Program-made: the position numbers and the translations under genes
IMG/VR virus record: IMGVR_UViG_3300031688_001339
DNA from: a virus
Direction: 5' to 3' (one strand)
DNA: 64,000 nt
Part shown: one piece after another, positions 2,279 to 26,373 of the stretch
Layout: each line of letters opens with the position of its first letter
Position numbering within the stretch: the first letter of the stretch is position 1
Notes under the pieces: generated by a model
Database searches by the model: none
The model's input: the letters and a program-made list of their open reading frames with translations, nothing else
Told to the model about the DNA's origin: nothing

Positions 2279-2286
2279 TATAAATA
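2279..2286 (+). promoter_or_regulatory. T4-type late promoter TATAAATA
   Basis: Exact gp55 consensus, 5 nt before the ATG at 2292. Confidence 0.7.
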
Positions 2287-2291
2287 AGATT

Positions 2292-3023
2292 ATGAATATA
2301 TTATTAACAGGCAGTGAAGGATTTATAGGTAAACACCTTCATAAACATCTAGAAAAAAACAATCACAAAGTAATCCCAATAGACAAACTAACAGGTAACG
2401 ATTTATTAAATTGTGACCTTAAATACGATGTAGATTTAGTCATACACTTGGCTGGTCTATCAGGTGTTAGAGATAGTTTAGATAGACCTACAGAATACTG
2501 GAAAGAAAATGTAATTGCAGGTCAGAGACTATTTGAATACTTTCCAGACACAAGAATACTATATGCAAGTTCATCAACAGCAATAGAACCTTGGCGTAAT
2601 CCTTATGCCATGAGTAAACTATCTTTAGAACAATTAGCACCTAAAAATAGTGTCGGTATGAGATTTACAACTGTATACGGACCAGGCGCTAGAGAACATA
2701 TGTTGATACCAAGAATTTTAAGAAATGATGTACCATTTATTCATACCAATCATACAAGAGACTTTATTCATGTAAATGATATATTAAGTGCGATTGATAC
2801 ATTAATAAAAAGTGATTATCAAGGTGTAACCGATGTTGGTAGAGGAGAGTCTTACAATCTATTAGATTTGATCGCAACATTTAAAATTGATTGTGAAAGA
2901 GCTATAGGTGGTGAGTTTGAGAGATTAGATAACAAAGCAGATAACACAGTATTAAACAAACTAAATTGGTCAACTACAATTGACCTATATGATTATATAA
3001 AGGATAGAAAAAATGTTCAATGA
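2292..3023 (+). CDS. NAD-dependent nucleotide-sugar epimerase/dehydratase
   Basis: TGSEGFIG Rossmann motif, HLAG, YASSS, YAMSK (YxxxK), RFTTVYG, RDFIHVND. Confidence 0.9.
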   Translation: MNILLTGSEGFIGKHLHKHLEKNNHKVIPIDKLTGNDLLNCDLKYDVDLVIHLAGLSGVRDSLDRPTEYWKENVIAGQRLFEYFPDTRILYASSSTAIEPWRNPYAMSKLSLEQLAPKNSVGMRFTTVYGPGAREHMLIPRILRNDVPFIHTNHTRDFIHVNDILSAIDTLIKSDYQGVTDVGRGESYNLLDLIATFKIDCERAIGGEFERLDNKADNTVLNKLNWSTTIDLYDYIKDRKNVQ

Positions 3024-3495
3024 AGAATTATTAAAAAACCATCTAGTTTCAGCACACTTTACTAACAGTGATAGAACATGGATTGAAGTATTAACAAATG
3101 AAGTAAAAGGTAGTTTAACACCTTATCATATTGAGTATGATGAAAATCATTCTCTATACCAATTGTTAAGTAAATTCGTAACTGTAGACCAATTGCATGA
3201 AAATACATATGCTAGAAATGAAGAAGCAAGAAAAGAGTTTGAAAAATCAAGTTTAGAGATAGCTGTTAAAGCAGGTCTTGTACAAACAGACGAAACATCA
3301 CCAACTAGAGTACTTGACTACATCTTTAACAAAAAAGAAAGTGAAGATGAAATGTTTGCTTTGAAGATTGCTTTATTTGAAATTGATGAGATTAAAGATT
3401 CTAAAGATGTCAAAGCTAAGAAAGCAATGAGAAAGAGTAAGACTAAACTTGAACTGTTGAAATCGGCGATTGATCTTTATAGTGCGGAATTATAA
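3013..3495 (+). CDS. Hypothetical protein
   Basis: 160-aa ORF overlapping the epimerase stop. Confidence 0.6.
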   Translation: MFNEELLKNHLVSAHFTNSDRTWIEVLTNEVKGSLTPYHIEYDENHSLYQLLSKFVTVDQLHENTYARNEEARKEFEKSSLEIAVKAGLVQTDETSPTRVLDYIFNKKESEDEMFALKIALFEIDEIKDSKDVKAKKAMRKSKTKLELLKSAIDLYSAEL

Positions 3496-4054
3496 AATCT
3501 GACCACCAACCATTCCAACCTGGTTCTAAAAGATGGTTCATTTGACCTAGAGTACATATACTAAATTCTTTTGGTGGCACTTCATACATATAGTTTTTAA
3601 TAGAAGGACAAACTTTATCATAGTTTTTGTAATCTATTTCTCTATAGTAAAATTCATCACTACCTTTATTGTACTTTTCAAGATACATTTTTTCATTTGA
3701 TTTAAATTTATCCCATATGTGAGAAACATCTCCTGTCCATGAAACAATAGTAGAGTTTAGTGGTGTGTGGGCTTCTTCTCTCCACCACAAATCATTCAAT
3801 AAAGTAAAGTCTTTACGAAATAAATTAGGTAACTCCTTCCATATAATAACATCTAAATCAAAATATAAATTTTCCCCATCACGAAATTTGTCATACATTT
3901 GAAACTTATTGTACCAATTACCGTAAAGGTCCGTTTCTAAAACTTCAAAACTATCATAAGATATTCCAGAGTGGAAATCTATCATATATTTTAAGTTATC
4001 AACATGCCATTGAGTAAACTTATTACCAAATTTACAAGCTATTATTCTTCTCAT
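3443..4054 (-). CDS. GT-A fold glycosyltransferase-like protein
   Basis: WYNKFQMY, YFDLDVII (DxD), LNSTIVSW, GSDEF. Confidence 0.7.
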   Translation of the reverse strand: MRRIIACKFGNKFTQWHVDNLKYMIDFHSGISYDSFEVLETDLYGNWYNKFQMYDKFRDGENLYFDLDVIIWKELPNLFRKDFTLLNDLWWREEAHTPLNSTIVSWTGDVSHIWDKFKSNEKMYLEKYNKGSDEFYYREIDYKNYDKVCPSIKNYMYEVPPKEFSICTLGQMNHLLEPGWNGWWSDFIIPHYKDQSPISTVQV

Positions 4055-4056
4055 TA

Positions 4057-4692
4057 TTAACTCCTAGGAGGCGTTCTATCAGAAACAACATAGGGTATTC
4101 CATCACTGTAATACCTTACATCATCAATGTCACATATTAAATCAAGATTAGCCCATTGTCCTGATTTTTTAATTTTTTGATATAAATTTGCAAAAGATTT
4201 CATATATTTTTCAGGTCCTACACCAGATACTTCATAGTCTCCACACATAGACAATATTATTTGTGTATAGTGACCTTGTTCAGCCCAACGTAAAGCAGAG
4301 TGATCTAATGTTTTAAAAACACAACCTGCTAGGTTTTGACCTGCTACAAGTACGTTTTGAATTTCTTTACCTTTTAATTTGAATTTATTTTTTATACTCA
4401 CAATGGAGTTAAGGTTTCCATTTTTATATTTGCTATCCCATTCTAACCACTGCCAATCATATCTTCCTTTAACTTCTTCGTATAAGTTATTTAGATTGTA
4501 TGCATTAGGAACTTTTTCATCTAAATTTTCAGATACTATACAAAGGTCTTCACAAGGGTGTTCAAACAGTAATCTTTTTAAAGTACTGAAACGAAGATCC
4601 TCTAACTCTTTGTCACGGTTAAGAAACGAATTACCTTCAAAGTCAATTAAGTTTAGAAGTGTGACTTGTTTAAGTTTTTCTGGGTGGTACAT
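4057..4692 (-). CDS. Possible isochorismatase/cysteine-hydrolase fold protein
   Basis: LLNLIDFEG and VLVAGQNLAGCVFKT...AEQGHYTQII resemble the catalytic Asp and GxxxxxCV motifs. Confidence 0.45.
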   Translation of the reverse strand: MYHPEKLKQVTLLNLIDFEGNSFLNRDKELEDLRFSTLKRLLFEHPCEDLCIVSENLDEKVPNAYNLNNLYEEVKGRYDWQWLEWDSKYKNGNLNSIVSIKNKFKLKGKEIQNVLVAGQNLAGCVFKTLDHSALRWAEQGHYTQIILSMCGDYEVSGVGPEKYMKSFANLYQKIKKSGQWANLDLICDIDDVRYYSDGIPYVVSDRTPPRS

Positions 4693-4694
4693 TA

Positions 4695-5450
4695 TTAATC
4701 TTCAAATGCCCATGTCTTCTCGTTACACCAGAAACATTTATTACAATTTTCAAGAGTTTGCGACCAAGCACATGATTTAGTTAAAGGATATAAACTATCC
4801 ATTAGATTGTGTTCTTTAAAAACACCTGCTACGAATTTCTTATCGTTTCTTAAATAAGGTTGATATGTAAGACCACCTTTATCTATTGTGTCCATAACTT
4901 TCAGTTTACTTTCACCAGGATCTCTTTTTCTTTCTGCCACTTTATAAAATCCTCTTTCTTTCTGTACATCTACAGGAGGATTAGAAGTCATAGCCATAAC
5001 AACAGGTGCGTCATACTGTAAAGACATTTTTGATCTTTTATCTCTATTTTGTAAAGCCTTTGAACAACCATTTAATGTTCCCCACATAGAAACTTTTTTA
5101 CCATTTACTATAAGACTACCTTTTGGTGAGGCCATTGCTAGTTTTGCTTTCTCTTGCCAAACTGGATCAGACGTAGATACTGTAAATATCTTTAGATCAT
5201 GTAGTTTAGGAAATTTGTTTTGTAACCATTGATGTACTTCTATAGCACGTTCAGTGTCTATAGGACAGTCTTCATCTTTGGTATGAAAAGGGTACATATC
5301 TATGTTAGGAAAGTTTGTACCTATTAAGTATGTAAGTGATGATGAATCACAGCCACCTGATAATGATACTACAACCTTATCTGGTGGTCCTTCTGGAAAA
5401 TGTTCTTTTCCGAATAAGTCAATAGTTTGATTGCCGTATGTTAGTTCCAT
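4695..5450 (-). CDS. QueC-like PP-loop ATP pyrophosphatase
   Basis: VVSLSGGCDSS PP-loop; C-terminal TKSC...CNKCFWC zinc motif. Confidence 0.75.
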   Translation of the reverse strand: MELTYGNQTIDLFGKEHFPEGPPDKVVVSLSGGCDSSSLTYLIGTNFPNIDMYPFHTKDEDCPIDTERAIEVHQWLQNKFPKLHDLKIFTVSTSDPVWQEKAKLAMASPKGSLIVNGKKVSMWGTLNGCSKALQNRDKRSKMSLQYDAPVVMAMTSNPPVDVQKERGFYKVAERKRDPGESKLKVMDTIDKGGLTYQPYLRNDKKFVAGVFKEHNLMDSLYPLTKSCAWSQTLENCNKCFWCNEKTWAFED

Positions 5451-5459
5451 AATAAATCC

Positions 5460-6746
5460 TTAATAATTAGTTTCTCTTTTTGCCTTTAAATAGTATTCTT
5501 CTAGTTCGGGGTGTGTTGTAAATAAATCGTGTCCTTCTTTTTTACTAAAACCATTTTGGTCTAAATCGTGACAGTAATCAATTGTCTTAATAAATTCTTC
5601 AACATCTTGTTCTTTGTCTAATGCTTTTATAATATTAGGATAGTCTTTATAAAATGGTTTTAACTTCTCTTTAATTTCTTTAGGTAAATTCTTTACTTGT
5701 AATATTCTTGGGTGTTCAATGATATAAAACGTGTGTTGTATACCCATATCTTTTAATAATGCAATTAGTTTATAATTTTCTAGTACACTTAAAAAAGATA
5801 TTACAGAGTGAACATTAACTCTTGCGTTTCTTCTAGCTCTCATTGTTTTCACATTATCCAAAAGTGAAGGCCAATCTGATTTCTTTCTTAAATAGTCATT
5901 ATATTTACCGTAACTATCTATTGATACTTTCATAACAAACTCTTTGAAGTGAGGAAAGTAATCTCTAAAGTTGTAACCGTCCATATCAAATACTGATAAG
6001 TTTGTTTTATAGATTAAGTCTATACCTTTTGAATGACCTGTTGCTACTAATTTGTCTAATAGTTTGTAGTGATTTTTCATAACTAAAGGTTCGCCACCAA
6101 TTAGTTTGATTGATCTAGTATACTTTGCTACGGAGGCAACATCGTCTGTATATTCATCGTCATCATGTTTCATTGTATTCATTCTTTCACCGTCTTTAGG
6201 GTCTAGATCAGGATCATATACTTTTTTTAATTGTTTTAGTGAGAGAGTTCTAGTGTTAGCACTTCTTGGTGTACACATATAACAATCTAGATTACAAGCA
6301 TTACCAAACATCTTCATTTTAATATCTAGTATTCTTTCATCAAATTCTGTAATTGCTCCTTCTTCAACAAACTTTTGAACGGCTCTTAATAATTCTGGTA
6401 CTTTACTATCAAATGTTCCTGCTAGTATTTGTTCAGTATACTTTTGTCTGTCTGAACGACCATATTTTTGTTCTTGTTTCCAACAACCTGTACAATGATG
6501 TCTAAAATATTTTGGATCATAATCTTCTTTTAACATTTCTGCTCTTAATTTATTTTGATAGTCGGAAGTATACCATTCTTTTATTTTAGTATCTTCCATG
6601 TTATGGCCAGTTCTAGCTAGTGCGTCATAACAAGGTGCATATCTGCCACTTAAACTAGAGAATACGTGTGTGAAAGGAAGTGGACAAAACCATAGTTTTT
6701 TATCTTTTAGTTTTTGTTCAAACTCTTTTTTCTGTTGCTCGTTCAT
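5460..6746 (-). CDS. Radical SAM protein with N-terminal twitch/SPASM-like Cys domain
   Basis: CNLDCYMC, GGEPL; N-terminal CPLPF...PC...CTGCW. Confidence 0.85.
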   Translation of the reverse strand: MNEQQKKEFEQKLKDKKLWFCPLPFTHVFSSLSGRYAPCYDALARTGHNMEDTKIKEWYTSDYQNKLRAEMLKEDYDPKYFRHHCTGCWKQEQKYGRSDRQKYTEQILAGTFDSKVPELLRAVQKFVEEGAITEFDERILDIKMKMFGNACNLDCYMCTPRSANTRTLSLKQLKKVYDPDLDPKDGERMNTMKHDDDEYTDDVASVAKYTRSIKLIGGEPLVMKNHYKLLDKLVATGHSKGIDLIYKTNLSVFDMDGYNFRDYFPHFKEFVMKVSIDSYGKYNDYLRKKSDWPSLLDNVKTMRARRNARVNVHSVISFLSVLENYKLIALLKDMGIQHTFYIIEHPRILQVKNLPKEIKEKLKPFYKDYPNIIKALDKEQDVEEFIKTIDYCHDLDQNGFSKKEGHDLFTTHPELEEYYLKAKRETNY

Positions 6747-6747: not shown

Positions 6748-7539
6748 CTAGTTATTTATCCATATGTTATACAACGGACTTTGAGGACTGCCATGTATAG
6801 AACGATTAGGTCCTGTATAGTGTACCATCTTTAGTGTCTCAGCTGGTTCATCTAGTAACATATAGTCAACATTAAAAGTTTTAGCGTATAGTTTATTTAA
6901 AGCAATCATATCTTCTCTATTTTCTGTATATTTACCTAACCATTCTGGTGGTGTCAAAGTAAGTTTACTTTTCTTTTCAAATATTTTCCAATCAACATAA
7001 TTTTGTTCTCCATAATACTTAAAGTGTACTTTACCTGTATTGTAATAATGTAATTGCCAATATGGTGGATTAAGTGCGAAATCGTCCCATATATGCTTAA
7101 ACTGTCCTGATTTAAATTTATAAAAACCACCGTTTAGTGGTAAGATATTATTGTCTTTAAGTTTCTTTTCTTCACCATTTGTTGTAGCATTATTCCACCA
7201 AGTGCCATAAGATACTAGTTCATCATCACCGACAGGAAAACCTATAAGATCATCTACATTACCTACAACAACTTGATCTATATCCATTATTATTATATCA
7301 TCACCTGGCTGTTGACCACCAAATAGAGGACTAAAGAATTTTAATTTATGCCAGTGTTTTTTAATGTCGCTATGATGATTATAAGGTAGTACAACATCTG
7401 CTTCAACATTAGGATCGTCACTTATACATACTGATCTAAAAGGTATACTACTATTCTTTCTTAAAGCCTTATAGAAGTTACCAACATAGTCTGGCGTATA
7501 AGTGCCTTTATAATATACAGTGCATATTCTAATCATCAA
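6748..7539 (-). CDS. GT-A fold glycosyltransferase-like protein
   Basis: HWHKLKFF, IMDIDQVV (DxD), NGGFYKF, GEQNYV; paralogue of ORF 3443. Confidence 0.7.
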   Translation of the reverse strand: MMIRICTVYYKGTYTPDYVGNFYKALRKNSSIPFRSVCISDDPNVEADVVLPYNHHSDIKKHWHKLKFFSPLFGGQQPGDDIIIMDIDQVVVGNVDDLIGFPVGDDELVSYGTWWNNATTNGEEKKLKDNNILPLNGGFYKFKSGQFKHIWDDFALNPPYWQLHYYNTGKVHFKYYGEQNYVDWKIFEKKSKLTLTPPEWLGKYTENREDMIALNKLYAKTFNVDYMLLDEPAETLKMVHYTGPNRSIHGSPQSPLYNIWINN

Positions 7540-8383
7540 TATGTTTCCATATCAAATCAAATCTTTTATTAATGGCATGTATAAGTTTGGCTGTCGTAGG
7601 AATAAACATTTGACTATCAAAAAAATAATGCCAATCTTTGTCTAACCATTGTACCGGTACTTTCTTTTCTTTTAACTTAACAGCAAACAGTGTCTCGTTA
7701 TCATAACCAAAGAAATCAGCAATCTTTTTAGGAAATAAATCGTATACTCCTATAAGACTTGTCATTAATTTAAGGTCATCTTTAAAATCAGTAAAGTATT
7801 CTAATTGATCTAAATGCTTTTTACTAATACCTACTATACCTGTATTAATAACATCATTGGTTGGACTTAAACCTTTCTCTATTAACATAGCCTGAGCATT
7901 ATAGTACTTGGCGTTTGGACTTCTTATTGTTTGAGTTTTAGGTGTTATTCTTTGAATAGGACTTACTCTTTCATTGTTATTTAAAACACATATACCTTTT
8001 GATAAGTCCCATACTTCAAAAAAGTTTTCATTTGTATTAGGAACAACATCAAAGTCTAGGTACAATACTTCATCGTATTTCTTACCAAACTCATATAGTA
8101 GATGTATCTTAAAGAAATTAACTATGTTATAACTTGTAATTTCTGGATAGTTTTTTCTAAAGAATTTATAGTACTCTGTATAGTCTTCAACCATTTTAAA
8201 GTCTACACCAATACTCTTAGCATATTCAACTTTACAATCTACCAATCTTTGATAGTTTATTTGAAATTCATTTTTAGTATTATAGTTTGTATGTACGGCG
8301 TCTGGTTTCTTTATATGATCGTCAAATAAATCTAACTCTGCCTTAGGTATATCTATGAATAAACTGAATATTATTCTTTTCAT
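7529..8383 (-). CDS. GT-A fold glycosyl/nucleotidyl-transferase-like protein
   Basis: LYLDFDVV (DxD), INTGIV, DNETLF; start moved to the ATG at 8383, which follows SD AAGGAG. Confidence 0.7.
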   Translation of the reverse strand: MKRIIFSLFIDIPKAELDLFDDHIKKPDAVHTNYNTKNEFQINYQRLVDCKVEYAKSIGVDFKMVEDYTEYYKFFRKNYPEITSYNIVNFFKIHLLYEFGKKYDEVLYLDFDVVPNTNENFFEVWDLSKGICVLNNNERVSPIQRITPKTQTIRSPNAKYYNAQAMLIEKGLSPTNDVINTGIVGISKKHLDQLEYFTDFKDDLKLMTSLIGVYDLFPKKIADFFGYDNETLFAVKLKEKKVPVQWLDKDWHYFFDSQMFIPTTAKLIHAINKRFDLIWKHIDD

Positions 8384-8384
8384 A

Positions 8385-9008
8385 CTACTCCTTGTAGTGT
8401 GCTGGTGTATCTGTTTCCAGTTTACCAATTAATAAAAATCTTGTTCCTCTATAGTCTGTTACCTTTTCTTCAGCAAGAACTGTTGCTGTATCTGGTAACT
8501 GTTTTTTAAAATCTTCTATTGTATCTACACAGTTTATATGTCCTTCAATATCATACATGTCGTTAGATGTAAAAGCAAAGTAAGAATTTATGTTACTTAA
8601 AATCTTTAAGTCTCTCATAGGTTTCATATGTTCACAAGAGGTGTTAATAATAAGTTTTGTTCTTTTAATTCTGTTAGAATCTTCAGCCCATTCAAAACAA
8701 TCTTTATTAACAAAGTCTATTTGTTTATATCCTGGATATATTCTATATTTGTTTCTACTAATAACTTGTGGATCTAAATCTATAGCAGTAATTCTTTTAA
8801 CTTCATGGTAAAAGGCAGGTATTAATATACTACCATACCAACAACCAAAAATAGCTATATCATCTTCTTTTTCTAATGGTACTAATTTCTTAATATGATC
8901 TATAAGTTTTATTTTAGTATTGAATTGGTTAGGACTTAATGAATCTAATAGATCACTATTCTCTCTAATTTCTTCCATTATATTTTTAAATAAATTTAAA
9001 TCAATCAT
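8385..9008 (-). CDS. Class I SAM-dependent methyltransferase-like protein
   Basis: IAIFGCWYG motif I, AIDLD motif II, INTSCEHM. Confidence 0.65.
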   Translation of the reverse strand: MIDLNLFKNIMEEIRENSDLLDSLSPNQFNTKIKLIDHIKKLVPLEKEDDIAIFGCWYGSILIPAFYHEVKRITAIDLDPQVISRNKYRIYPGYKQIDFVNKDCFEWAEDSNRIKRTKLIINTSCEHMKPMRDLKILSNINSYFAFTSNDMYDIEGHINCVDTIEDFKKQLPDTATVLAEEKVTDYRGTRFLLIGKLETDTPAHYKE

Positions 9009-10540
9009 TTTCTTATTATATAATCATTAATAACTAATATATCTATAGCAGTTTTCTTAAATGTTCTTAATGCATGTTCAGGAGTTTCTACAATAGGTTC
9101 TTGACAGTTAAAACTTGTATTAACTAACATAGGAACACCAGTGATCTCTCCGAACTCTCTTATAAGTTCATAGAATTTACTATTATCTTTTTTATTTACT
9201 GTTTGTATTCTAGCCGTGCCATCAACGTGAGTAACACCAGGTATTACATTTTTCATTTCTGGTTTAACTTTACATATTCTTGACATGTAAGGACTAGGTG
9301 AGTTAGTATCAAAGTATTGTTTATAGTGTTCTTCTAATACGGCTGGTGCAAATGGTCTAAAGTCTTCTCTCATTTTAACAGTACCATTAATAATATCTTT
9401 TATATCAGGATTTCTAGGATCAGCTAATATACTTCTATTACCTAATGCTCTGTTACCACTTTCTGATTTACCTTGAAACCAACCTACTATCTTGCCATCA
9501 GCAAGTGCTTGAGCAATTTCTTTATATGAAGTTAACTTTTCTTCGCCTTTGTAATAGTCATATGATTTGCCAGCATAAACGTTAGAAATATGTACATTAT
9601 TGTTTATTGTATAGTCAGCATGTTGATAAGCACCAATAGCCTGTCCTTCATCACCAATTGCAGGTGGTACATGAACGTTTTGATAGTGTTCAGTAAACAT
9701 TTCATTTACATAACCATTGTAAGCAACTCCACCAGCAAGACAAAGATGATCACAAGTTTTTAATGGATAAACATATTCCTTAATTTTTTCCATTGTAATA
9801 TGTTGTAGTGTATATGCTAAGTCATTTATACCGTGTTTGTCAATCTCTATAGATTTCCATTCTGGATACTTTCTTTCTAAAATAGGTCCTTCTAATATAG
9901 TGGTTAATACATTATAATAGTAATCACTAAATTTACCATAACCAACTTTACCCATAAGTTTACTTGCACCTAGTGTTCCGAAACCTGTAAGATTAGACAT
10001 ATGATTCCATAACCACCCGATAGGAAGTTTTGATGATAGATCAGTTGCTTTACCGTCTCTATCAAAAAATAAACATCTGTATTTTGAGCCAATGCCGTCT
10101 ATTGCAAGTACATCACTTTGTTGATAACCTGAATTTAAAAATGCATAAGCAGCATGTGATTGATGATGATCAATATAATAGATACCATCTTTATAATAAT
10201 TTTGCCATAATGTTTTAACTTCGTAGTCTAAAATCTCATCATGTCCTTTAAATATAGTTTTAAATAATTCTTCTTTTGATTTTCTTATACCACCATAAGT
10301 GTATGTAAATGCTAAAACACTGTCCTCTGGTTTTTTAAGATGTTCTTTTATAAACTGATCATTTAAAGTATAGTCACCAGGATTTAATATATCTGATTGA
10401 TGATTATATGCTTCTGCTCTGTATGGTAAGTTATGTTTAAATCTAGTATGTCTTTCTATCTGATTGTGAAAGACACCATCGTAGGTATTGTGATCGTGTA
10501 AGTTAATTGCGACTGCATTTATTTTCATTTTCTTTTCCAT
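9005..10540 (-). CDS. Carbamoyltransferase (NodU/CmcH/TobZ family)
   Basis: HHQSHAA, IDGIG, LAGGVAYN, GDEGQAIG, RALGNRSILADP, FRPFAP, HVDGTARIQTV, NTSFN. Confidence 0.92.
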   Translation of the reverse strand: MEKKMKINAVAINLHDHNTYDGVFHNQIERHTRFKHNLPYRAEAYNHQSDILNPGDYTLNDQFIKEHLKKPEDSVLAFTYTYGGIRKSKEELFKTIFKGHDEILDYEVKTLWQNYYKDGIYYIDHHQSHAAYAFLNSGYQQSDVLAIDGIGSKYRCLFFDRDGKATDLSSKLPIGWLWNHMSNLTGFGTLGASKLMGKVGYGKFSDYYYNVLTTILEGPILERKYPEWKSIEIDKHGINDLAYTLQHITMEKIKEYVYPLKTCDHLCLAGGVAYNGYVNEMFTEHYQNVHVPPAIGDEGQAIGAYQHADYTINNNVHISNVYAGKSYDYYKGEEKLTSYKEIAQALADGKIVGWFQGKSESGNRALGNRSILADPRNPDIKDIINGTVKMREDFRPFAPAVLEEHYKQYFDTNSPSPYMSRICKVKPEMKNVIPGVTHVDGTARIQTVNKKDNSKFYELIREFGEITGVPMLVNTSFNCQEPIVETPEHALRTFKKTAIDILVINDYIIRK

Positions 10541-18442: not shown

Positions 18443-18447
18443 ACGCA

Positions 18448-18468
18448 TATTTATAACACTTATAAATA
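18448..18468. promoter_or_regulatory. Back-to-back divergent late promoters (18448-18455 minus; 18461-18468 plus)
   Basis: TATTTATAA-CAC-TTATAAATA inverted repeat containing two exact TATAAATA. Confidence 0.8.
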
Positions 18469-18490: not shown

Positions 18491-18646
18491 ATGACAATAA
18501 AACAAAAACATAAAGACTTAAAGACTAAAGTAATTAAAGCAGAGACAAAAAGAGAATTGAGACGAGGTCCTACAAGTTGGTTTGACCTACGTATGTTAAA
18601 GAAACTAAAATTACAAATGAAAGACAAATTAAAATTATCTAAATGA
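18491..18646 (+). CDS. 51-aa DUF465/YdcH-like coiled-coil protein (not in the ORF track)
   Basis: MTIKQKHKDLKTKVIKAETKRELRRGPTSWFDLRMLKKLKLQMKDKLKLSK; SD GGAGGT; ATGA overlap with the next gene. Confidence 0.65.
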   Translation: MTIKQKHKDLKTKVIKAETKRELRRGPTSWFDLRMLKKLKLQMKDKLKLSK

Positions 18647-19098
18647 TTAAATTTCAATATGATTTAGAAAAGATTAAGAAAGAGTTGGAATCTTTACCAG
18701 ATTATAACAAACAGTTATATCTGCAAGGTCACTCTAAAGATATGGATCCTGAAGAAGGAGCTGGCAAAGGTTATGATATAGACAGTAGCGAACACACATA
18801 TACTATTCCATTATTTGATATACCTTACATCAATAGTATAATGGAAGAACATAAACTTACTAGAACAAGATTAATGAGAATGAAACCTAAAGCATGTTAT
18901 CTTTGGCACAACGATTTAACAAAAAGATTACACATACCAATTGTTACAAATGATCATTGTTTTTTATTATTAGACAGTGATAGAATACACATACCAGCGA
19001 CAGGCGAGGCATATGTAATAGATACTACTAAATTTCATACAGCATTAAACTGCTCAAAGGAAAATCGTATTCATATTGTTGGAGGACTACCTTACTAA
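18643..19098 (+). CDS. Aspartyl/asparaginyl beta-hydroxylase-like Fe(II)/2OG cupin
   Basis: RTRLM, WHND (HxD), RLHIPIVTN, HTALN, RIHIV. Confidence 0.75.
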   Translation: MIKFQYDLEKIKKELESLPDYNKQLYLQGHSKDMDPEEGAGKGYDIDSSEHTYTIPLFDIPYINSIMEEHKLTRTRLMRMKPKACYLWHNDLTKRLHIPIVTNDHCFLLLDSDRIHIPATGEAYVIDTTKFHTALNCSKENRIHIVGGLPY

Positions 19099-20384
19099 TG
19101 TTATATGACGCTCTTATAACTTCACTACCAGGAATGGATAAAAGTAAACCTGCACCTGGTCCTTCTTTTTTAAAAGGATATTTAGAGACACAAGGATTTA
19201 AAATCAAAGTTATAGATGGCAATCAGTTAGATACTTTAGATAATATTCATAAAGAAATTGCAAAATATGATTTCAGATGGCTAGGTATATCTGTATTCTC
19301 TTATGAACAAAAAGATGACGCCTTAAAATTAGGTGAAAGATATGAAAATGTATTGTATGGTGGATCAGGTGTAGATATAGCATGGCCATCAAAATATTAT
19401 ATTACAGGAGAAGGAGAGTACGCCTTTGTAGAATTTTTAAATAACAATTTTGATTATCCTGGCATTAACGGAAAACAACCAAAACAAATAGAAGACATAG
19501 AGTCATTACCACCACCTGATTATTCAGACGTAATACAACAACATAACTATCGTAAATTTGTAATATCTGGTTCTAGAGGTTGCGTTAGAAATTGTACCTT
19601 TTGTGATGTTGCAAGTATATGGCCTAAATTTAGATGGAAGACAGGTAAGAAGATAGCAGACGAAATGCACCACGTATCAGAAACTACAGGTGGAAACAAA
19701 ATACATTTTTCAGACTCTTTAGTTAACGGATCAATGAAACACTTTAGGGATTTGTGTGCTGAGTTAGCTACTAGACCTAAAAAGATTAAATGGGAAGGAC
19801 AGTTTATCGTTAGAGCAGAAAAAACTTTCTCTAAACAGGACTTTGATAACTTAGCCAACTCTGGTTGTAATGGTTTAGAAATGGGTATAGAGGCAGGTAA
19901 TGAAGAAGTTAGAGATCATATGAAAAAGAAGTTTACCAATGAAGACATAAAATACTTTGTAACTAATTTAGGTGAACGAAATATTACAATGAAGTTTTTA
20001 CTTATTGTAGGTTATCCTACGGAAACGGAAAAAATGTTTGAAGATACTCTACAACTAATAAGAGACTATGCAAAGTATTCACATTTAATAAGTATATCAC
20101 ACCATGTTATGATGACCTTTAAAAATACACCATTAGACTTTGAACATAGAGAGTTGTTTGATAGTGAGTTTGGTTTTAAATGGAAGAATAAAAATTCAGA
20201 CTTTGATATAAGATTTCAAAGATTTATAAAAGTATATGAGTTAGGCAATGAATTAGGTTATAATTTCCAACAACATTGTATTGATAAGATAGAGAGATAC
20301 AAATCCGACAAACTTAATGAAAAAAGAAAGTCTATAGGATTTGCACACCCTAAAGCAAAGAAAACTTTACACGTTCAAAGTTAA
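19098..20384 (+). CDS. Cobalamin (B12)-binding radical SAM protein (class B methyltransferase-like)
   Basis: PAPGPSFLKGYL, LGISVFS, YGGSG, GEGE, SRGCVRNCTFC, GIEAGN, IVGYPTET. Confidence 0.85.
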   Translation: MLYDALITSLPGMDKSKPAPGPSFLKGYLETQGFKIKVIDGNQLDTLDNIHKEIAKYDFRWLGISVFSYEQKDDALKLGERYENVLYGGSGVDIAWPSKYYITGEGEYAFVEFLNNNFDYPGINGKQPKQIEDIESLPPPDYSDVIQQHNYRKFVISGSRGCVRNCTFCDVASIWPKFRWKTGKKIADEMHHVSETTGGNKIHFSDSLVNGSMKHFRDLCAELATRPKKIKWEGQFIVRAEKTFSKQDFDNLANSGCNGLEMGIEAGNEEVRDHMKKKFTNEDIKYFVTNLGERNITMKFLLIVGYPTETEKMFEDTLQLIRDYAKYSHLISISHHVMMTFKNTPLDFEHRELFDSEFGFKWKNKNSDFDIRFQRFIKVYELGNELGYNFQQHCIDKIERYKSDKLNEKRKSIGFAHPKAKKTLHVQS

Positions 20385-22165
20385 AAGTTCTTTTTTATTC
20401 CAAAGTTAAAGTTTCTACCATCTTGGTTATAACCATCTGGTCTTTCATAGTTTTCATCAAAAGCATTATTAAGTTTAGAGTATATTAAATAATCTCCAAT
20501 ATATTTTGAAACACCAAAGTCTACTGTTGTAACCTCTGATTTAGGAATAGTAGCATAAGTCACACTATCTATATCTAAATGTTCTCCATAATAATTTATA
20601 TTAGATGTTAAATTATAACCTTTGTACTCTGTATAGATACTTGTATTATTAATCCATTTTGGTTTTCTAGTTAAAGATGTTCCGTTACTTCCTTCAGAAA
20701 CTATCCAACTTGTATTATTCTTTATGATAAAATTGTTTATATCATAAGTCAATCCCATTTCAGCACCATGACGAGTAGATGTACCACTAATATTTTTTAT
20801 CGTACTGTCTTGGTAGTTTAAAAGATTTTCTATATCAATTTGAAAAATAGCTATATCAATTGATTTAAGATTAGTTTCTTCAAAATGTTTTTTATATCCT
20901 ATTTCGTAAGATTTACTTTCTTCAGGTTTTGCATTTTCATTACCTGAAAATCCGTAACCACTTGTACCATACATTTCATATAACGTAGGTGCTTTATGAC
21001 CTGTAGATATAGAACCTCTTATGCCGTTATGTTCAAAACCATATCTATGATTAGTAAAACTACCAAATCTTGATTGATCATCATATCTAATACCATAAGT
21101 TAAAAAAGTATCATTAATTAAATAGTCAATTGTTCCACTGTAACCATGTAAGTGACTTTTTTTATTAACACTTGGAACATAAGAACCAATGTTAGTGTTG
21201 AAATTAACATCTGTTATTTCATGGTCAAAGCCTGAAGTAAATGATAGATTGTCATTAACAGATTTTGTATTGTCTACATGAAAAGTTTTTACATTACTTT
21301 CATATAGGTCAGTGTCGCCAGATTTAAGATATGATCTTTTATGATCACTATTATTAAATGTAAAGTGAGTATCTTTATCAAAGTAATTAATTTGTTGGTT
21401 TTTAAAATTCCACTCACTAGTGTAAGCTAAGTTATCAGAACCAGAATTATCTAAACTAGAATCATTTTGTTTGTCTATAAAAATGGTACCTAAAGTATAA
21501 CCATTATCTAAAGTAGTTTCTGTATTAAGAAAGTAACTTCTATTATCATAAGGGTCTTTTTCCGCACCTTGAGGATAAACAGAGATACCATCACTAGTCT
21601 CATCTTCAATTCTAAAGTCTAATATAGTTTTGTGTTCTTCAAGGAATGTTCCTAATTTTATTGTTTTGTTCCATGTGTTATGAGAACCATAATCTAATGA
21701 AATTGAATTTTCATCACTAGCACAGGTTTTCATATTGATAACACCACCAATAGCTTCAGCACCATAAACTGTTCCCATAGGACCTTTTATGATTTCTATA
21801 GCACAAGTGCCTAATGTTCCGTGTTGTCCGATATCATCTGTACCACCGGTAGTTGATCTATCTTTTATTCCGATACCATTTAATGTTATTAATGTATGAT
21901 CTGAATCTGTTCCTCTGGTAAATGTAGAAGACAGTTGATTTTTAGGACCTGAAGTTACAATATTAAGTGAAGTACTTTCATTTAAATTTTCAGGACCAAT
22001 AATGTCATACGAATATGTTTTGTGTTGATGGTCGCTAGCAGTCCTTAATCCATGAATATGGAGGGTGACGACCAAGTTGCCATCATCGTCATAGTATGAT
22101 GGTTTTTCCTCATGTGCTAACGCAACGGTAGAGAAAAGAAGTATTGATAATAGTATTTTATACAT
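20381..22165 (-). CDS. TonB-dependent outer-membrane receptor, BtuB-like
   Basis: Signal peptide MYKILLSILLFSTVALA; TonB-box-like NLVVT; plug QLSSTFTRGTDSDHTLITLNG; IEIIKGPMGTVYGAEAIGGVINM; KAPTLYEMY; KPEESKSYEIG; C-terminal NAFDENYERPDGYNQDGRNF...F. Confidence 0.85.
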   Translation of the reverse strand: MYKILLSILLFSTVALAHEEKPSYYDDDGNLVVTLHIHGLRTASDHQHKTYSYDIIGPENLNESTSLNIVTSGPKNQLSSTFTRGTDSDHTLITLNGIGIKDRSTTGGTDDIGQHGTLGTCAIEIIKGPMGTVYGAEAIGGVINMKTCASDENSISLDYGSHNTWNKTIKLGTFLEEHKTILDFRIEDETSDGISVYPQGAEKDPYDNRSYFLNTETTLDNGYTLGTIFIDKQNDSSLDNSGSDNLAYTSEWNFKNQQINYFDKDTHFTFNNSDHKRSYLKSGDTDLYESNVKTFHVDNTKSVNDNLSFTSGFDHEITDVNFNTNIGSYVPSVNKKSHLHGYSGTIDYLINDTFLTYGIRYDDQSRFGSFTNHRYGFEHNGIRGSISTGHKAPTLYEMYGTSGYGFSGNENAKPEESKSYEIGYKKHFEETNLKSIDIAIFQIDIENLLNYQDSTIKNISGTSTRHGAEMGLTYDINNFIIKNNTSWIVSEGSNGTSLTRKPKWINNTSIYTEYKGYNLTSNINYYGEHLDIDSVTYATIPKSEVTTVDFGVSKYIGDYLIYSKLNNAFDENYERPDGYNQDGRNFNFGIKKNF

Positions 22166-22518
22166 AGTTTTCCAATTATTACACATATTAAAGTTGAAAC
22201 CAGTAAATTAAAATCAAATGGTATAGCCATAATATACGTTGTTAATAAATCGCCACCTGATTTATACCAGACAGCATAGTTAATAAGAACATGCCATGTC
22301 ATTACACCTACAAAAGTAGCATAGATTTCATTTTTAATAAATTTACTCGCAAGAACGAATAAGCACATACACCCATAAACAGGTATCATTAAAGAATGAA
22401 AGCCGATGAAAATATCCTTTATTAACAGAAAAGTCATTGGTAAAAGATATTGTATATAACGATTATTTGTAAGACTAGGTAATAATATAGCAATAGCAAA
22501 TAAAGGTGTCACATTCAT
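22117..22518 (-). CDS. Integral membrane protein, DUF6580/ECF S-component-like putative vitamin transporter
   Basis: Four to five hydrophobic segments; NVTPLFAIA, DIFIGFH, PVYG, INYAVW, YIMAIPF. Confidence 0.6.
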   Translation of the reverse strand: MNVTPLFAIAILLPSLTNNRYIQYLLPMTFLLIKDIFIGFHSLMIPVYGCMCLFVLASKFIKNEIYATFVGVMTWHVLINYAVWYKSGGDLLTTYIMAIPFDFNLLVSTLICVIIGKLCIKYYYQYFFSLPLR

Positions 22519-22526
22519 ATTGTATC

Positions 22527-22557
22527 TATTTATACACTATTTTAAATTAAAAGGCAA
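22527..22557 (-). promoter_or_regulatory. Promoter of the transporter unit: late TATAAATA (22527-22534) coincident with sigma70-like TTGCCT-N17-TATAAA
   Basis: Motifs read directly on the minus strand, 8 nt upstream of the ATG at 22518. Confidence 0.6.
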
Positions 22558-22568
22558 CCTTGAGGTCA

Positions 22569-22576
22569 TATAAATA
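22569..22576 (+). promoter_or_regulatory. Late promoter TATAAATA
   Basis: Exact consensus 5 nt before the ATG at 22582. Confidence 0.7.
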
Positions 22577-22581
22577 ACTGT

Positions 22582-22923
22582 ATGGCTGGAATAGCAAACT
22601 TAACTATAGACCAAGGGTCTAATTTTACATACGATTTAGAAGTAACTAATAGTGATGGTACAGATTTTGATCTTACTGGATTTACGATGGTTGCTAAAAT
22701 GTCTAAAGGTTATTCCTCTACATATCCTAGAACAGTTTTTACATGTTCAGTATCACAACCAACCGAGGGTGTCGTTACTATAAGTTTAACTGCTGATCAA
22801 ACGAAAGCTTTAAAGGCAGGTCGTCACGTATTTGACGTAGTTGCTACTCATTCGGATAGTACTGTAACTCGTTTACTAGAGGGAATTGTTATTGTAACTC
22901 CCTCTGTAGTTCTTTCTTTTTAA
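22582..22923 (+). CDS. Small virion structural protein (Ig-like, marine T4-like phages)
   Basis: ANLTIDQGSNF...ISLTADQT...RLLEGIVIVTPSV. Confidence 0.7.
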   Translation: MAGIANLTIDQGSNFTYDLEVTNSDGTDFDLTGFTMVAKMSKGYSSTYPRTVFTCSVSQPTEGVVTISLTADQTKALKAGRHVFDVVATHSDSTVTRLLEGIVIVTPSVVLSF

Positions 22924-24296
22924 GATTTAACAGGAGTTTTATTATACTCAAACGTTGCTTTGTTATCGCCTTTTTGTGCTAGACCAAAACCAGCTTTAGT
23001 CATAAATTGAAGTAACATATTCCAATTTAAACCAGATATATCGTCAAAAACCCAAATTGTTTGATCGGCTTTTCTTTCATTGAAGAAAACAGCTTCTTTT
23101 ATTACACTAGCAGTATCGTGAGGACCATCAAAGTGTATCATTTCATATTTGTCTAACATGATTTTATTTTCTTCGTAGATAGGAAAACCATCTTTGAATC
23201 TATTCATAAACTCTGTATCTTCTAAATTAATTAAATGAAACTCTGGATAATATTGAGCAAAGTTACCTAGTGCTTTTTGTCTCATTTTATTATCATAGTT
23301 GAATTTTTTTAAAACACCTTCGGAAGCTGCATAGTCAATATTACCATATGGATCTACACCTAAATGATTAGCTCTAACAGTTGGGTGATAATGTCTGTAT
23401 GCGTCCATAATAGTTTTACTTCCTAAACCTAATCTAACACCAATCTCCATACTTACACCTATAGGATTTCTTAACATTTTTACAGCTGTAGCTAAACTTC
23501 CATACTCTATACTATCGCCAGTGAAAATATCTCCTTCATTTACTTCTAATGAATACTTTCCAGTTACAGGATCAATACCTGGTGCTGTTCTAGCAACATC
23601 TTTAGCAGTTTTATCAAAAGGTTCTTCAACTGTCATAGTACCTGTCATTGGTGTCATTGGTGCCTGCTCTACAGCAAACATATCAACACCTTTATTAATT
23701 TGACCTACTGTGAAAGTACTATCACCTGTATGATCACAACGTATTGTTGTATCTGCCCATAATTCAAAACCTAGATTGCCTGCTTTTCTACAGAAATCAA
23801 CATCTTCGGATATTGTATTAGAATGATCAAGTGCTGAGTGATAAGTGAATTGAGGATAACCTACATCTTTTAAAACTTTTCCTTTTATAAGAACACAACC
23901 TAAACCACAAGCTGCAATTTTTATAAACGGAGTATCTTTACATTCTTCAAAAGTTATACGTTCATTTCCACCACCCTCTGGTCTTTTTTTATAAATTTCT
24001 AGTTTATGAGTGCCTTGTATTCTTTGAATATAAAGACCTGATACCATATCTTTGTCATGTTTGATCATTTTCTCTAACGTATCTGAAGCAAAAGATATAT
24101 CACTATCTACAGAAAACAAATAATCATAATGTTGACCCCATTCAGCAATTAAATTTCTTATTTGATCTACTTGATAACCAAAAAAGAATTGAAATTCAGT
24201 TGTATATCCTTCTGGTACTTTTAAATCATAAATTGCTTTGAACGTTGATGGTTCAATAAACTTGTTTGTTGGTATTGCTATCAGTATTTTTTTCAT
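22920..24296 (-). CDS. GT-A glycosyltransferase fused to a class I methyltransferase domain
   Basis: LFSVDSDI, GLGCVLIK, SEDVDFC; then MEIGVRLG, GVDPYG, HFDGPH. Confidence 0.78.
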   Translation of the reverse strand: MKKILIAIPTNKFIEPSTFKAIYDLKVPEGYTTEFQFFFGYQVDQIRNLIAEWGQHYDYLFSVDSDISFASDTLEKMIKHDKDMVSGLYIQRIQGTHKLEIYKKRPEGGGNERITFEECKDTPFIKIAACGLGCVLIKGKVLKDVGYPQFTYHSALDHSNTISEDVDFCRKAGNLGFELWADTTIRCDHTGDSTFTVGQINKGVDMFAVEQAPMTPMTGTMTVEEPFDKTAKDVARTAPGIDPVTGKYSLEVNEGDIFTGDSIEYGSLATAVKMLRNPIGVSMEIGVRLGLGSKTIMDAYRHYHPTVRANHLGVDPYGNIDYAASEGVLKKFNYDNKMRQKALGNFAQYYPEFHLINLEDTEFMNRFKDGFPIYEENKIMLDKYEMIHFDGPHDTASVIKEAVFFNERKADQTIWVFDDISGLNWNMLLQFMTKAGFGLAQKGDNKATFEYNKTPVKS

Positions 24297-26323
24297 TGTG
24301 TTATTATCCTATTTGCGTTTTTTGTTTGTTCGTTAGAGTTAATTTTATAGTCGTTTAGTGGATTTATATCGTTATAGTTATACACTACATCTGATACTAC
24401 TTTTACCTTGTCGGGATCACACTGCTCAATGAGTGTATAAAATATAGAACCATCGCCACCAGCTTTGTACCAATTTTTGTTTTCGTCTTGGAAGTTACTA
24501 TAATCTACGCCATCTAAAAGTTTTGCTTTGAAAGTTCTTAAATGTGTGTATGGCATATTCCAATTAAATTTATATTCTCTGTATTTCTTTTGTTTTTTTA
24601 TTTCATCTGGATAAGGTTGTGCTACTAAAGGTATTTTATCTACCATAGACCAACATGACCCATAAGAAAATTCTGTAGTGCCGTCATAAAGATTATTATA
24701 AAAGTGAAGTATCTGATTGTTATTAACTAGAGAGTCATCGCCATCTAGGAACATTACTATATCATCTTTATCACAATATTTCTTTATAGATTCTATTTGA
24801 TTACAAACAGCACCTTTGTTTACTTCATTTCTAATTACTTTAATATTTTCACTTTCATATTGTTTTGCAATTGAATATGTATTATCAGTGGAACAATCAT
24901 CAATTACTACCATTAAGTAGTTATCATAATCTTGTGTTACAACTGATCTAATACAGTTCTCTATATAGTTAGCCGAATTATAAGTCGGTGAGATTATAAC
25001 TATTCTTTGTTCTTTTTTTCTAGGTAAATAATTTTCTTCTTCATTTGTAAATCTTCTACCAAATACCGTTCTATGTCTGGAGTTTATATAACTTACCTTT
25101 CTATATTCTTCTTTAGATAAGTAATCTCCTAATTTATAAAGTATATGTTGTTTCCATTGTAAAGCTACTGAATCCCAACCAACAATACCTTTTATAAGAT
25201 TACAAGCATATTGTTTTTGTTGATGTAAATATCTATTATGATGAGACATCAAAACTGCATTGACAAATTTTTCTACTTGATGTGGTTGATTAATAAATTG
25301 AAATAAATTGTTTGGTTCAATTGCATAATCTATAAGATAACAAGCTTCTTGTACTGCTGTTTCTTCTAAAGCACCAAAACGTGTGGCGATTACAGGAGTA
25401 TTATATGCTAATGCTTCTAAAGTTGATATGCCAAATGTTTCAGGAAAGGCACCTGGAAATAATTTAAAACTTGCTCTTTCTAATATTTCTGCTATTTCTG
25501 ATTGTTTAATAATACCTGTAAATTCTATACCAAGCATTTTGTTTTTAGGATCACTAGACATTTTAGTCCATTCTTCTCCTTGAGCATCCATCTTTTTGCC
25601 TGGAAAAACATAAAATCCACCAATGCATATTAATTTTGCCTCTGGTATCTTTGCCTTAATTTTTGGCCATATATCGTTAACTAGAGGTGCCATACCTTTC
25701 GTGAAAGCTGCATTAAAAACGTATAGATGAGGATCTTTTTTTCTTATGTCAACATCATTTTTATAAGTTACTATACCATTTCTAGTTTGAAAGAATTTCT
25801 TTTTTAAAACTTCAAAATTTCTTCTTTTACCATGATCACAGTTAGTTACATAAGTTGAGTGAAAATCAGATAGAGTAAATACTTCATCTATATGTCCACC
25901 TACAACCAAGTCTTCCAAATAAATATCTCCGTTTGCAAACGTATCGTGCATCCATACTATTTTATGTTTTGCATAATTTTTTATTGCAGAATATCTTTGA
26001 GGATTGTATTGAGCAAACTGATTATACATGTTAGGTGTTAAGAAAGGAATTATTGTTCTTAATGATATTACAACATCAAATTTAAAATCACTCTTATAAT
26101 CAAGTATAGAGTTGTCTAGATATTGAACACCATCATAGTTTCCTTCTTTTGCAAGATTAGGATCTTTTGAACAGTTATTGAAGATTGTTACTTTAAAACC
26201 TAGTTTGGCAAGGTTTTTAGCCATTAATATTGTCGCTGATTCGGATCCACCGAGACCTCTTTTCTTTAAAGTATCTCCATCGTATGGTAACCCTATTATA
26301 TCTAAAAATGCTATGGTTGTCAT
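24293..26323 (-). CDS. GT-B (GT4-like) plus GT2 fusion glycosyltransferase
   Basis: LGGSESA, WMHD, ETFGISTLEALA; then SPTYN, IDDCSTD, FLDGDD. Confidence 0.88.
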   Translation of the reverse strand: MTTIAFLDIIGLPYDGDTLKKRGLGGSESATILMAKNLAKLGFKVTIFNNCSKDPNLAKEGNYDGVQYLDNSILDYKSDFKFDVVISLRTIIPFLTPNMYNQFAQYNPQRYSAIKNYAKHKIVWMHDTFANGDIYLEDLVVGGHIDEVFTLSDFHSTYVTNCDHGKRRNFEVLKKKFFQTRNGIVTYKNDVDIRKKDPHLYVFNAAFTKGMAPLVNDIWPKIKAKIPEAKLICIGGFYVFPGKKMDAQGEEWTKMSSDPKNKMLGIEFTGIIKQSEIAEILERASFKLFPGAFPETFGISTLEALAYNTPVIATRFGALEETAVQEACYLIDYAIEPNNLFQFINQPHQVEKFVNAVLMSHHNRYLHQQKQYACNLIKGIVGWDSVALQWKQHILYKLGDYLSKEEYRKVSYINSRHRTVFGRRFTNEEENYLPRKKEQRIVIISPTYNSANYIENCIRSVVTQDYDNYLMVVIDDCSTDNTYSIAKQYESENIKVIRNEVNKGAVCNQIESIKKYCDKDDIVMFLDGDDSLVNNNQILHFYNNLYDGTTEFSYGSCWSMVDKIPLVAQPYPDEIKKQKKYREYKFNWNMPYTHLRTFKAKLLDGVDYSNFQDENKNWYKAGGDGSIFYTLIEQCDPDKVKVVSDVVYNYNDINPLNDYKINSNEQTKNANRIITQ

Positions 26324-26361
26324 ATTATTAGTATCAATTTTATTTTTAATTCACTACAGTT

Positions 26362-26373
26362 TATTTATAAATA
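26362..26373. promoter_or_regulatory. Overlapping bidirectional late promoter (palindrome TATTTATAAATA)
   Basis: TATAAATA on both strands, between the divergent glycosyltransferase and fibre genes. Confidence 0.75.

Follow-up and report, generated by a model that had tools for sequence, protein, structure and literature searches.

A modular sugar-tailoring island behind late-type promoter motifs in a pelagimyophage, with a possible role in virion glycosylation

Setting and gene content of the island

The window analysed here, the whole 64-kb stretch of IMG/VR virus record IMGVR_UViG_3300031688_001339, belongs to a T4-like myovirus of the pelagimyophage type, a phage of the ocean bacterium SAR11. 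Between the end of a VrlC-like giant structural protein (position 1493) and a set of collagen-like fibre genes (from 26440) lies an island of approximately 31 genes (2292–26323), which encodes a putative sugar-tailoring pathway, radical and redox enzymes, and predicted suppliers of their cofactors. Its transcription units begin at a motif that behaves as a late promoter, and its products may build a glycan that is placed on fibre proteins of the virion, a reading that is tentatively favoured below.

Neck proteins are encoded to the right of the fibres (33442–35059), followed by the sheath stabiliser, terminase, sheath, portal, protease, scaffold and major capsid protein; replication and recombination genes, including gp55, come after this structural block. 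Amongst GenBank phages, a nucleotide match was obtained only with Pelagibacter phage Mosig EXVC030M, in the carbamoyltransferase gene (77% DNA identity); the Mosig genome contains a syntenic island between VrlC and the tail-fibre genes. In addition, a 28.4-kb IMG/VR fragment is 96% identical across the island. The host recognition cluster (HRC) of pelagimyophages extends from VrlC to the neck gene gp14 and holds fibres, glycosyltransferases (GTs) or lipopolysaccharide (LPS) genes, and radical SAM cassettes (Zaragoza-Solas et al., 2020; PMC7029224). The island forms the enzymatic core of one such HRC, VrlC to neck: the genomic slot and the content classes are the same, and Mosig, the nearest isolate, is syntenic.

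Gene content was derived from Pfam, NCBIfam and PHROG scans, with motifs read from the sequence and selected AlphaFold models searched with Foldseek. The features are listed below with protein lengths in amino acids (aa) and, where given, pairwise ratios of non-synonymous to synonymous substitution (dN/dS) against relatives.

3–1493, plus: C-terminal end of a VrlC-like giant structural protein, the left cluster boundary (phrog_358 3e-158, profile positions 1766–2055 of 2056; 66% identity to the Mosig region beside VrlC)
2292–3023, plus: short SDR epimerase/dehydratase, 243 aa (PF01370 1.5e-26, 94 bits; dN/dS 0.24)
3013–3495, plus: 160-aa protein, the end of which overlaps the convergent gene by 53 nt (zero matches in Pfam, NCBIfam and PHROG)
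3443–4054, minus: small GT-like protein, last gene of a long minus-strand operon (phrog_1962 glycosyltransferase 3.9e-5; dN/dS 0.08)
4057–5450, minus: 211-aa protein and PP-loop ATPase (4695–5450; SGGCDS motif, weak family match)
5460–6746, minus: twitch-domain radical SAM, N_Twi_rSAM (NF033640 296.7 bits against a cut-off of 170; CNLDCYMC)
6748–8428, minus: GT-like protein of 263 aa (from 6748; phrog_1962 1e-9) and GT8 glycosyltransferase of 299 aa (from 7529; PF01501 1.4e-7)
8385–9008, minus: probable class-I SAM methyltransferase, 207 aa (motifs IFGCWYGS and AIDLD; Mosig homologue annotated as a methyltransferase; no profile matches)
9005–10540, minus: NodU/CmcH-type carbamoyltransferase (PF16861 1.4e-70, 237 bits; PF02543)
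10558–10956, minus: DUF59/SufT-like Fe–S assembly protein (PF01883 3e-13, 50.3 bits against a cut-off of 23.5; TIGR02945 81 bits, below the equivalog cut-off)
10966–11805, minus: 279-aa radical SAM (PF04055 4.5e-9; CNKDCHYC)
11795–13460, minus: two nitroreductase-fold paralogues (mutual identity 38%, E 1e-66; model confidence, pLDDT, 85.7; Foldseek to flavin mononucleotide nitroreductases E 3e-9)
13444–14506, minus: SGNH-like protein (GDS motif; PF13472 sub-threshold) and conserved 102-aa protein (dN/dS 0.14)
14503–15573, minus: DegT/PseC/LegC-type sugar aminotransferase (PF01041 7.9e-83, 279 bits; TIGR03588 185 bits)
15573–17586, minus: two tandem pairs, each a radical SAM core (209 and 221 aa) with a separate Cys-rich SPASM-like partner (121 and 127 aa) (CPLECPNC; cores 68% identical; weak radical SAM family matches)
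17573–18448, minus: 291-aa first gene of the minus-strand operon, a GT-B-like lead (language-model feature neighbours carry PF00534, score 0.92)
18491–20384, plus: 51-aa open reading frame (ORF), Asp/Asn-type 2-oxoglutarate hydroxylase of 151 aa (18643–19098; PF05118 7e-9) and B12-binding radical SAM of 428 aa (19098–20384; PF04055 1.7e-19 and PF02310; TIGR04479 98 bits)
20381–22518, minus: BtuB-like TonB-dependent receptor with signal peptide (20381–22186; PF00593, PF07715) and DUF6580 membrane protein (22117–22518; PF20221 1e-15)
22582–22923, plus: LtfC-like tail-fibre assembly protein, 113 aa (phrog_3304 3e-18; PF23926 weak)
22920–26323, minus: glycosyltransferase line, a GT4+GT2 protein (676 aa; lower coordinate 24293) and a GT2-like protein with a methyltransferase domain (458 aa; 22920–24296) (Pfam; methyltransferase domain exactly at the Pfam cut-off)
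26440–31259, plus: three Pro-poor, Ser/Thr-rich collagen-like fibre genes, candidate acceptors (PF01391 6e-23, 1.9e-19)
52927–53487, plus: gp55 late sigma factor homologue, outside the island (phrog_234 5.2e-60)

A first-pass annotation, made from the letters alone, had described about 30 genes for sugar tailoring and radical/redox chemistry embedded amongst fibre genes. The inventory was confirmed almost item by item by the three profile collections, and its location is as described (VrlC-like end at 1493, collagen-like fibres at 26440, neck at 33442). Firmly assigned are the SDR epimerase, DegT aminotransferase, carbamoyltransferase, GT8, GT4+GT2, NF033640 radical SAM, B12 radical SAM, PF05118 hydroxylase, DUF59 protein, TonB receptor and DUF6580. 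Other items stood in part. Of the two methyltransferase domains proposed, one matches exactly at the Pfam cut-off and the second was recognised by class-I motifs and the Mosig annotation, giving one or two; the putative SGNH acyl enzyme contains the GDS motif, with a profile match below threshold; and for SufT and B12 uptake, DUF59 scores above the Pfam cut-off and BtuB models fit the receptor best, but the equivalog cut-offs are not reached. GT-like genes number six (3443, 6748, 7529, which is the GT8, 17573, which is the lead, 22920 and 24293). The CxxxCxxC motif is intact in all five radical SAMs, the cores of the tandem pairs being located at 15922–16551 and 16921–17586.

Transmembrane helices are predicted in none of the island enzymes, and the only membrane proteins are the receptor, with its signal peptide, and DUF6580. 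Wzx, Wzy, WaaL, an initiating transferase, an ABC exporter and a GtrABC-like protein are all absent from the Pfam and NCBIfam matches of the island, and are functions that the host could supply. Pairwise dN/dS against relatives is 0.06–0.35 for most island genes, which are therefore working genes and not stuffer DNA.

A phmmer search of PDB sequences returned nothing informative for the 291-aa protein, the PP-loop protein, the GT-methyltransferase protein or DUF6580. The AlphaFold model of the 291-aa protein has a pLDDT of 60 and its best structural match is PimA (Z 8.1), with GT-B enzymes heading the list only at background-level Z; a GT-B-like fold is thus a lead only. Relatives of the PP-loop ATPase are mostly environmental and make up an orphan family. 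For the twitch radical SAM, a scan of 185,579 species genomes with two peptide patterns gave only two weak loci, a result of little weight given that two patterns were scanned, and tblastn against GenBank phages gave matches of only 24–31% identity, mostly in KVP40-type Vibrio phages. As a main reading for the nitroreductase pair, BluB-like B12 chemistry was considered and rejected, since genes of this type are present in Mosig, where any B12 unit is lacking, and the folds match generic nitroreductases.

The receptor has both plug and barrel, and BtuB models are its best matches, at 161 and 115 bits against cut-offs of 600 (TIGR01779) and 836. The BtuB assignment is supported by the pairing of the receptor with the B12 radical SAM, seen at 21 of 27 loci. 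Between the DUF6580 ORF and the beginning of the receptor ORF there is an overlap of 49–70 nt; the receptor signal peptide starts at the second Met, and DUF6580 occurs in only five of the 27 related loci as against 21 for the receptor. Further downstream, at 58481–62099, a 767-aa ‘peptidase’ (phrog_459) and a CobS-like AAA protein (phrog_249, porphyrin biosynthesis) are of possible relevance to cobalamin.

A late-type promoter motif at unit boundaries

The 8-mer TATAAATA occurs 19 times in the window against 14.5 expected, and 12 of 100 shuffles reach 19, so that its number is not above chance. Seventeen of the copies are in or at intergenic DNA, which makes up 5.7% of the window, and each is oriented towards the gene that follows. 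Ranked by intergenic count, TATAAATA comes first amongst all 8-mers (binomial P = 5.5e-13 against pooled AT-only 8-mers). Each of the seven strand-defined island units begins at a copy. The copies in the island are as follows:

2279–2286, plus: TATAAATA 5 nt before the epimerase ATG, kept only in the four closest of 19 relatives
10555–10562, minus: internal copy in the sole 17-nt gap of the minus-strand operon, present in nine of 21 relatives
18448–18468, both strands: back-to-back hub for both arms; all 10 unique relative sequences have the rightward copy, and their consensus shows the leftward one
22527–22576, both strands: divergent pair (22527 minus, 22569 plus), the plus copy exactly 5 nt from the ATG in 55 of 63 loci
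26362–26373, both strands: 12-bp palindrome that reads TATAAATA on either strand and separates the GT genes from the first fibre gene; 19 of 20 unique sequences have the motif ahead of that fibre gene

Mosig has an equivalent back-to-back hub (L001 26668–26687), and the motif precedes the LtfC-like gene in 13 of 20 unique relative sequences. At homologous junctions in IMG/VR relatives, the motif is retained and its flanks vary, while upstream of three internal control genes (SufT, the 279-aa radical SAM and the receptor) it was found in zero relative loci. Elsewhere in the window it lies upstream of the sheath, prohead protease, scaffold, tail-tube-like and fibre genes, and directly upstream of none of the UvsY-position ORF (named solely from gene order in Mosig), helicase, gp55 and SbcCD genes. 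The minus-strand operon comprises 20 genes with junctions of –44 to +17 nt, and sigma-70-like sites and terminators occur at chance frequency.

The proposal that every transcription unit starts at TATAAATA therefore held: all the positions given for it exist, with seven of seven strand-defined units beginning at a copy, and the copy at 10555 proved to be internal to an operon. Its reading as a late promoter is likewise upheld by the gp55 homologue in the window, the motif before structural genes and its retention at homologous junctions; in addition, gp33 and gp45 are seen in the annotation of Mosig. TATAAATA thus behaves as a gp55-type late promoter of the phage, and late timing would be expected by analogy with T4. 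Since late promoters of pelagimyophages could not be predicted in the 2020 study (PMC7029224), the late-promoter wiring of the island appears to be new with respect to that work.

At three genes the motif is followed by exactly 5 nt and an ATG, namely the epimerase (2279–2294), the LtfC-like gene (22569–22584) and the 291-aa gene, where the ATG is that of the third codon (18441–18455). Late transcription in T4 starts 6 nt after the late box; if the same applies here, leaderless mRNAs would be expected for these three genes. All three convergent junctions of the island overlap, at 3443–3495 (53 nt), 20381–20384 (4 nt) and 22920–22923 (4 nt), and a terminator-like hairpin is present at none of them, so opposite late transcripts should collide or give antisense RNA. 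The sole strong hairpin of the region (32260–32287; 12 bp, six GC pairs, T-run) could terminate on both strands between fibre-region genes, and a double TATAAATA is located just past it at 32319/32328.

Two further copies of the motif lie past the major capsid gene. One, at 47457, opens a region directly past the major capsid gene (47457–48858) which encodes a third split radical SAM core and SPASM-like partner (CPLECLRC), the core being 48% identical to that at 15922–16551. The other, within 48859–49128, is separated by 6 nt from an unlisted 83-aa ORF, the N-terminal stretch of which is strongly hydrophobic; the tail-tube-like gene lies downstream of this ORF.

Modules and their distribution

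Comparison of all island proteins with 128 loci by tblastn reveals conservation of a left-arm core, from the epimerase to the 291-aa gene, in approximately 20 contigs at 50–99% amino-acid identity, and largely also in Mosig. The cassette of 211-aa protein, PP-loop ATPase and twitch radical SAM is absent from Mosig, as is SufT. Homologues of the PP-loop ATPase and of the twitch radical SAM probably occur on shared contigs, as the lengths given for their longest contigs agree. The hydroxylase, B12 radical SAM and receptor form one module, and the LtfC-like gene, GT line and collagen-like fibres another. Thus, the PP-loop/twitch radical SAM cassette, SufT, the B12 unit and the GT line come and go while the left arm is conserved. 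Judged by these sequence comparisons, the island is a set of several modules with differing distributions and not a single invariant pathway.

The PP-loop cassette bears on whether the island might hypermodify the phage DNA. A PP-loop ATPase beside radical SAMs recalls QueC and QueE, and pyridoxal phosphate, flavin and radical SAM enzymes are found in thymidine hypermodification clusters. Late expression would be compatible with a DNA target, as the mom gene of phage Mu is a late DNA-modification gene. QueC and QueE were, however, rejected for this pair: the QueC match covers only the nucleotide-binding motif (E 8e-4), and the radical SAM falls in NF033640 and not in QueE. TGT/DpdA, hydroxymethylase and hydroxymethyluracil (HMU) kinase are found neither amongst the families scanned in the 64-kb window nor in the annotation of the complete Mosig genome, not all hypothetical proteins having been searched. 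Mosig has an ordinary ThyX and, as noted, lacks the cassette. DNA modification is therefore unlikely, and is the most doubtful of the readings weighed here.

The modular make-up of the island would also suit a modification of proteins by means other than sugars. The radical SAM/SPASM pairs, B12 radical SAM, hydroxylase and nitroreductase-fold enzymes could represent a toolkit like that for ribosomally synthesized and post-translationally modified peptides (RiPPs), acting on structural proteins or a small peptide, with the sugar genes as a separate module. A split radical SAM and SPASM-like partner occurs three times, one pair following the major capsid gene directly with a motif of its own, and the enzyme set resembles that for proteusin tailoring. 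However, no precursor peptide or leader family was recognised in the island, and the radical SAM family matches are weak and non-specific. DesII, BtrN, AprD4 and GenK are radical SAMs of sugar tailoring, and AprD4 is amongst the matches of the B12 radical SAM. A RiPP-like role is accordingly considered unlikely.

For the GT4+GT2 protein of the GT line, 106 viral relatives were found. Tblastn of this fusion against GenBank phages gave partial matches only. In distant phages, the relative is a single polypeptide of 890–1586 aa with one or two GT4 domains and a GT2; an Anp1-like region is added in some forms, and in most an FkbM methyltransferase makes up the C-terminal end. The two genes at 22920–26323 are therefore a split form of one glycan assembly line with terminal methylation. 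On uncultured-phage contigs of 114–353 kb, single proteins of 1365–1586 aa combine a GT2 domain with as many as two GT4 domains (L126 7723–12480, L108 8651–13378 and L109 8654–12748).

The GT line and collagen-like fibres occur together in 19 of 20 close relatives, and Mosig has neither. The GT line and first fibre gene have the conserved palindromic promoter at 26362–26373 in common. Fibre 1 contains 20% Gly, 20% Ser and 14% Thr (34% Ser+Thr) with 3% Pro. A general rule that the GT fusion always travels with collagen-like fibres was considered and rejected: it holds in close relatives, by synteny, and fails in distant phages (six of 19 loci, with no enrichment with proximity).

Possible targets and comparison with known systems

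For the gene content, promoter placement and conservation observed here, the reading tentatively favoured is a late, cytoplasmic pathway that would build a heavily tailored amino-sugar glycan and place it on virion fibre proteins, with timing, chemistry and acceptor as suggested by gene families and by analogy. Host nucleotide sugars would be oxidised or epimerised by the SDR enzyme, aminated by DegT, carbamoylated and methylated. Further editing of the sugars by the radical SAM enzymes could follow, along the lines of aminoglycoside-type tailoring, with deoxygenation, C-methylation or epimerisation as examples. The DUF59/SufT protein would support the Fe–S enzymes, and the BtuB-like receptor would supply the B12-dependent radical SAM. 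Soluble glycosyltransferases, including the split line of three GTs and a methyltransferase, would then transfer the glycan in the cytoplasm to fibre or other virion proteins, the adjoining Ser/Thr-rich collagen-like fibres being prime candidate acceptors.

A virion target is suggested by the late structural wiring, the shared palindromic promoter, the embedded fibre-assembly gene, the soluble enzymes without lipid-carrier machinery, the Ser/Thr-rich fibres, and the joint presence of GT line and collagen-like fibres in close relatives and their joint absence from Mosig. There are also precedents: work by Freeman in 2023 reportedly described glycosylation of mycobacteriophage virions, and the chlorovirus PBCV-1 protein A064R is a multidomain GT-GT-methyltransferase. 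In Che8-type operons of mycobacteriophages and in PBCV-1, soluble viral GTs adjoin structural genes, with a GT-GT-methyltransferase architecture like that at 22920–26323. These systems lack radical SAM tailoring and their virion glycans have been demonstrated, whereas the likeness here is one of architecture, drawn from genes alone.

Several findings weigh against fibre glycosylation. The SGNH, PP-loop family, 291-aa GT and second methyltransferase assignments are weak. The outer-membrane receptor stands behind the same promoter type as the rest of the island, and its envelope insertion, B12 uptake and cofactor loading would therefore be expected after late genes switch on. GT8, GT2 and GT4 are generic families typical of LPS work, and a soluble or peripheral location is also known for GTs of LPS-core and ABC-transporter-type O-antigen synthesis. 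The conserved left arm is present in Mosig, which has zero collagen-like fibres, and at least this arm is therefore independent of them. Simple synteny accounts for the joint occurrence of GT line and collagen-like fibres in close relatives, and in distant phages collagen-like genes are no nearer to the GT fusion than would be expected (four loci at 0–5 kb as against four at 5–10 kb).

Many of these points could instead indicate remodelling of the host envelope, in which the tailored sugar would be added to LPS, capsule or another surface glycan of SAR11 via host export, blocking superinfection or re-adsorption to debris. This is the published reading for pelagimyophage HRCs and cyanophage LPS clusters (PMC7029224, PMC3037559, PMC12801897). 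The GT8 in the island and the independence of the left arm from fibre type are in keeping with it. As the late receptor would be expected to act at the envelope, and envelope biogenesis hence to work late, the argument that a late pathway does not serve the host surface is a weak one. Of the components of an O-antigen or LPS locus, nucleotide-sugar tailoring enzymes and GTs are present in the island and lipid-carrier and export families are not; the family scans found no GtrABC-like protein, flippase, polymerase, ligase or initiating transferase there. The island is also wired to structural genes, with shared promoters, and the exclusion functions of T4 are early genes. On balance, envelope remodelling seems somewhat less likely than fibre glycosylation, and more likely than the RiPP-like role. 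The first-pass annotation had placed the glycan, or other marks, on virion proteins or the host surface and not on DNA; the sugar-tailoring set and late wiring agree with this, but lateness in itself excludes neither DNA, given Mu mom, nor the envelope, given the receptor.

The combination of DegT, twitch and B12 radical SAMs, carbamoyltransferase and GTs is that of aminoglycoside-type tailoring (DesI/DesII, BtrN, AprD4, GenK, TobZ), and the resemblance to aminoglycoside clusters would also fit a diffusible small molecule, an aminoglycoside-like compound or cofactor, in place of a decoration. Similar genes have been named ‘antibiotic synthesis genes’ in a cyanophage (PMC12801897). However, the island matches are far below equivalog cut-offs; no core scaffold synthase, exporter or resistance gene was recognised in the island; and the context is a phage structural module, the fibre-gene surroundings and shared promoters favouring a structural role. 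A small molecule is thus quite improbable, more so than a RiPP-like product.

The favoured pathway, glycosylation of the virion, may also be set against other marine phages. T4-like cyanophages carry LPS or cell-wall clusters (P-SSM2, S-SSM7, S-SCSM2R) with epimerases, DegT-type aminotransferases, GTs and a radical SAM (PMC3037559, PMC12801897). Like the island, these are large sugar clusters of marine T4-like phages; their function has never been tested. They differ in genome position, near hli03 or phoH, cofactor-supply genes have not been reported in them, and the likeness is by gene content only. For the pelagimyophage HRC itself, the region has been described as hypervariable and modification of the host O-chain proposed (PMC7029224), whereas a large core is conserved here in approximately 20 contigs (50–99% amino-acid identity), every unit begins at a late-type motif, and the Fe–S and B12 helper genes are placed in context. 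The additions for pelagimyophages are a conserved, statistically supported late-promoter architecture, a modular map, a split-fusion GT line and the caveat of a late receptor.

The fullest version of the favoured reading is that a T4-like phage with a Gram-negative marine host glycosylates its own collagen-like fibres, the amino-sugar glycan being carbamoylated, methylated and edited by radical SAM enzymes; the Fe–S helper and B12 import would be the phage's own, and late promoters, several of them giving leaderless mRNAs, would switch the whole set on. This is possible, and is held with rather less confidence than fibre glycosylation as such. It has been known for years that marine T4-like phages carry ‘LPS-like’ gene clusters, and these abound in the ocean. 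Late-promoter wiring, soluble enzymes under purifying selection and a promoter shared with a fibre gene sharpen the vague idea of a role at the ‘host surface’, in an abundant pelagimyophage group with a member in culture. Should the fibres be glycosylated, this would add a new layer to host recognition and phage–phage competition in SAR11, the most abundant marine bacterium, and would give a substrate context to the unstudied N_Twi radical SAM family. It would also be the first virion glycosylation pathway to be worked out beyond the actinobacteriophages and giant viruses, and would answer a twenty-year-old question on the role of the ‘LPS genes’ of marine T4-like phages.

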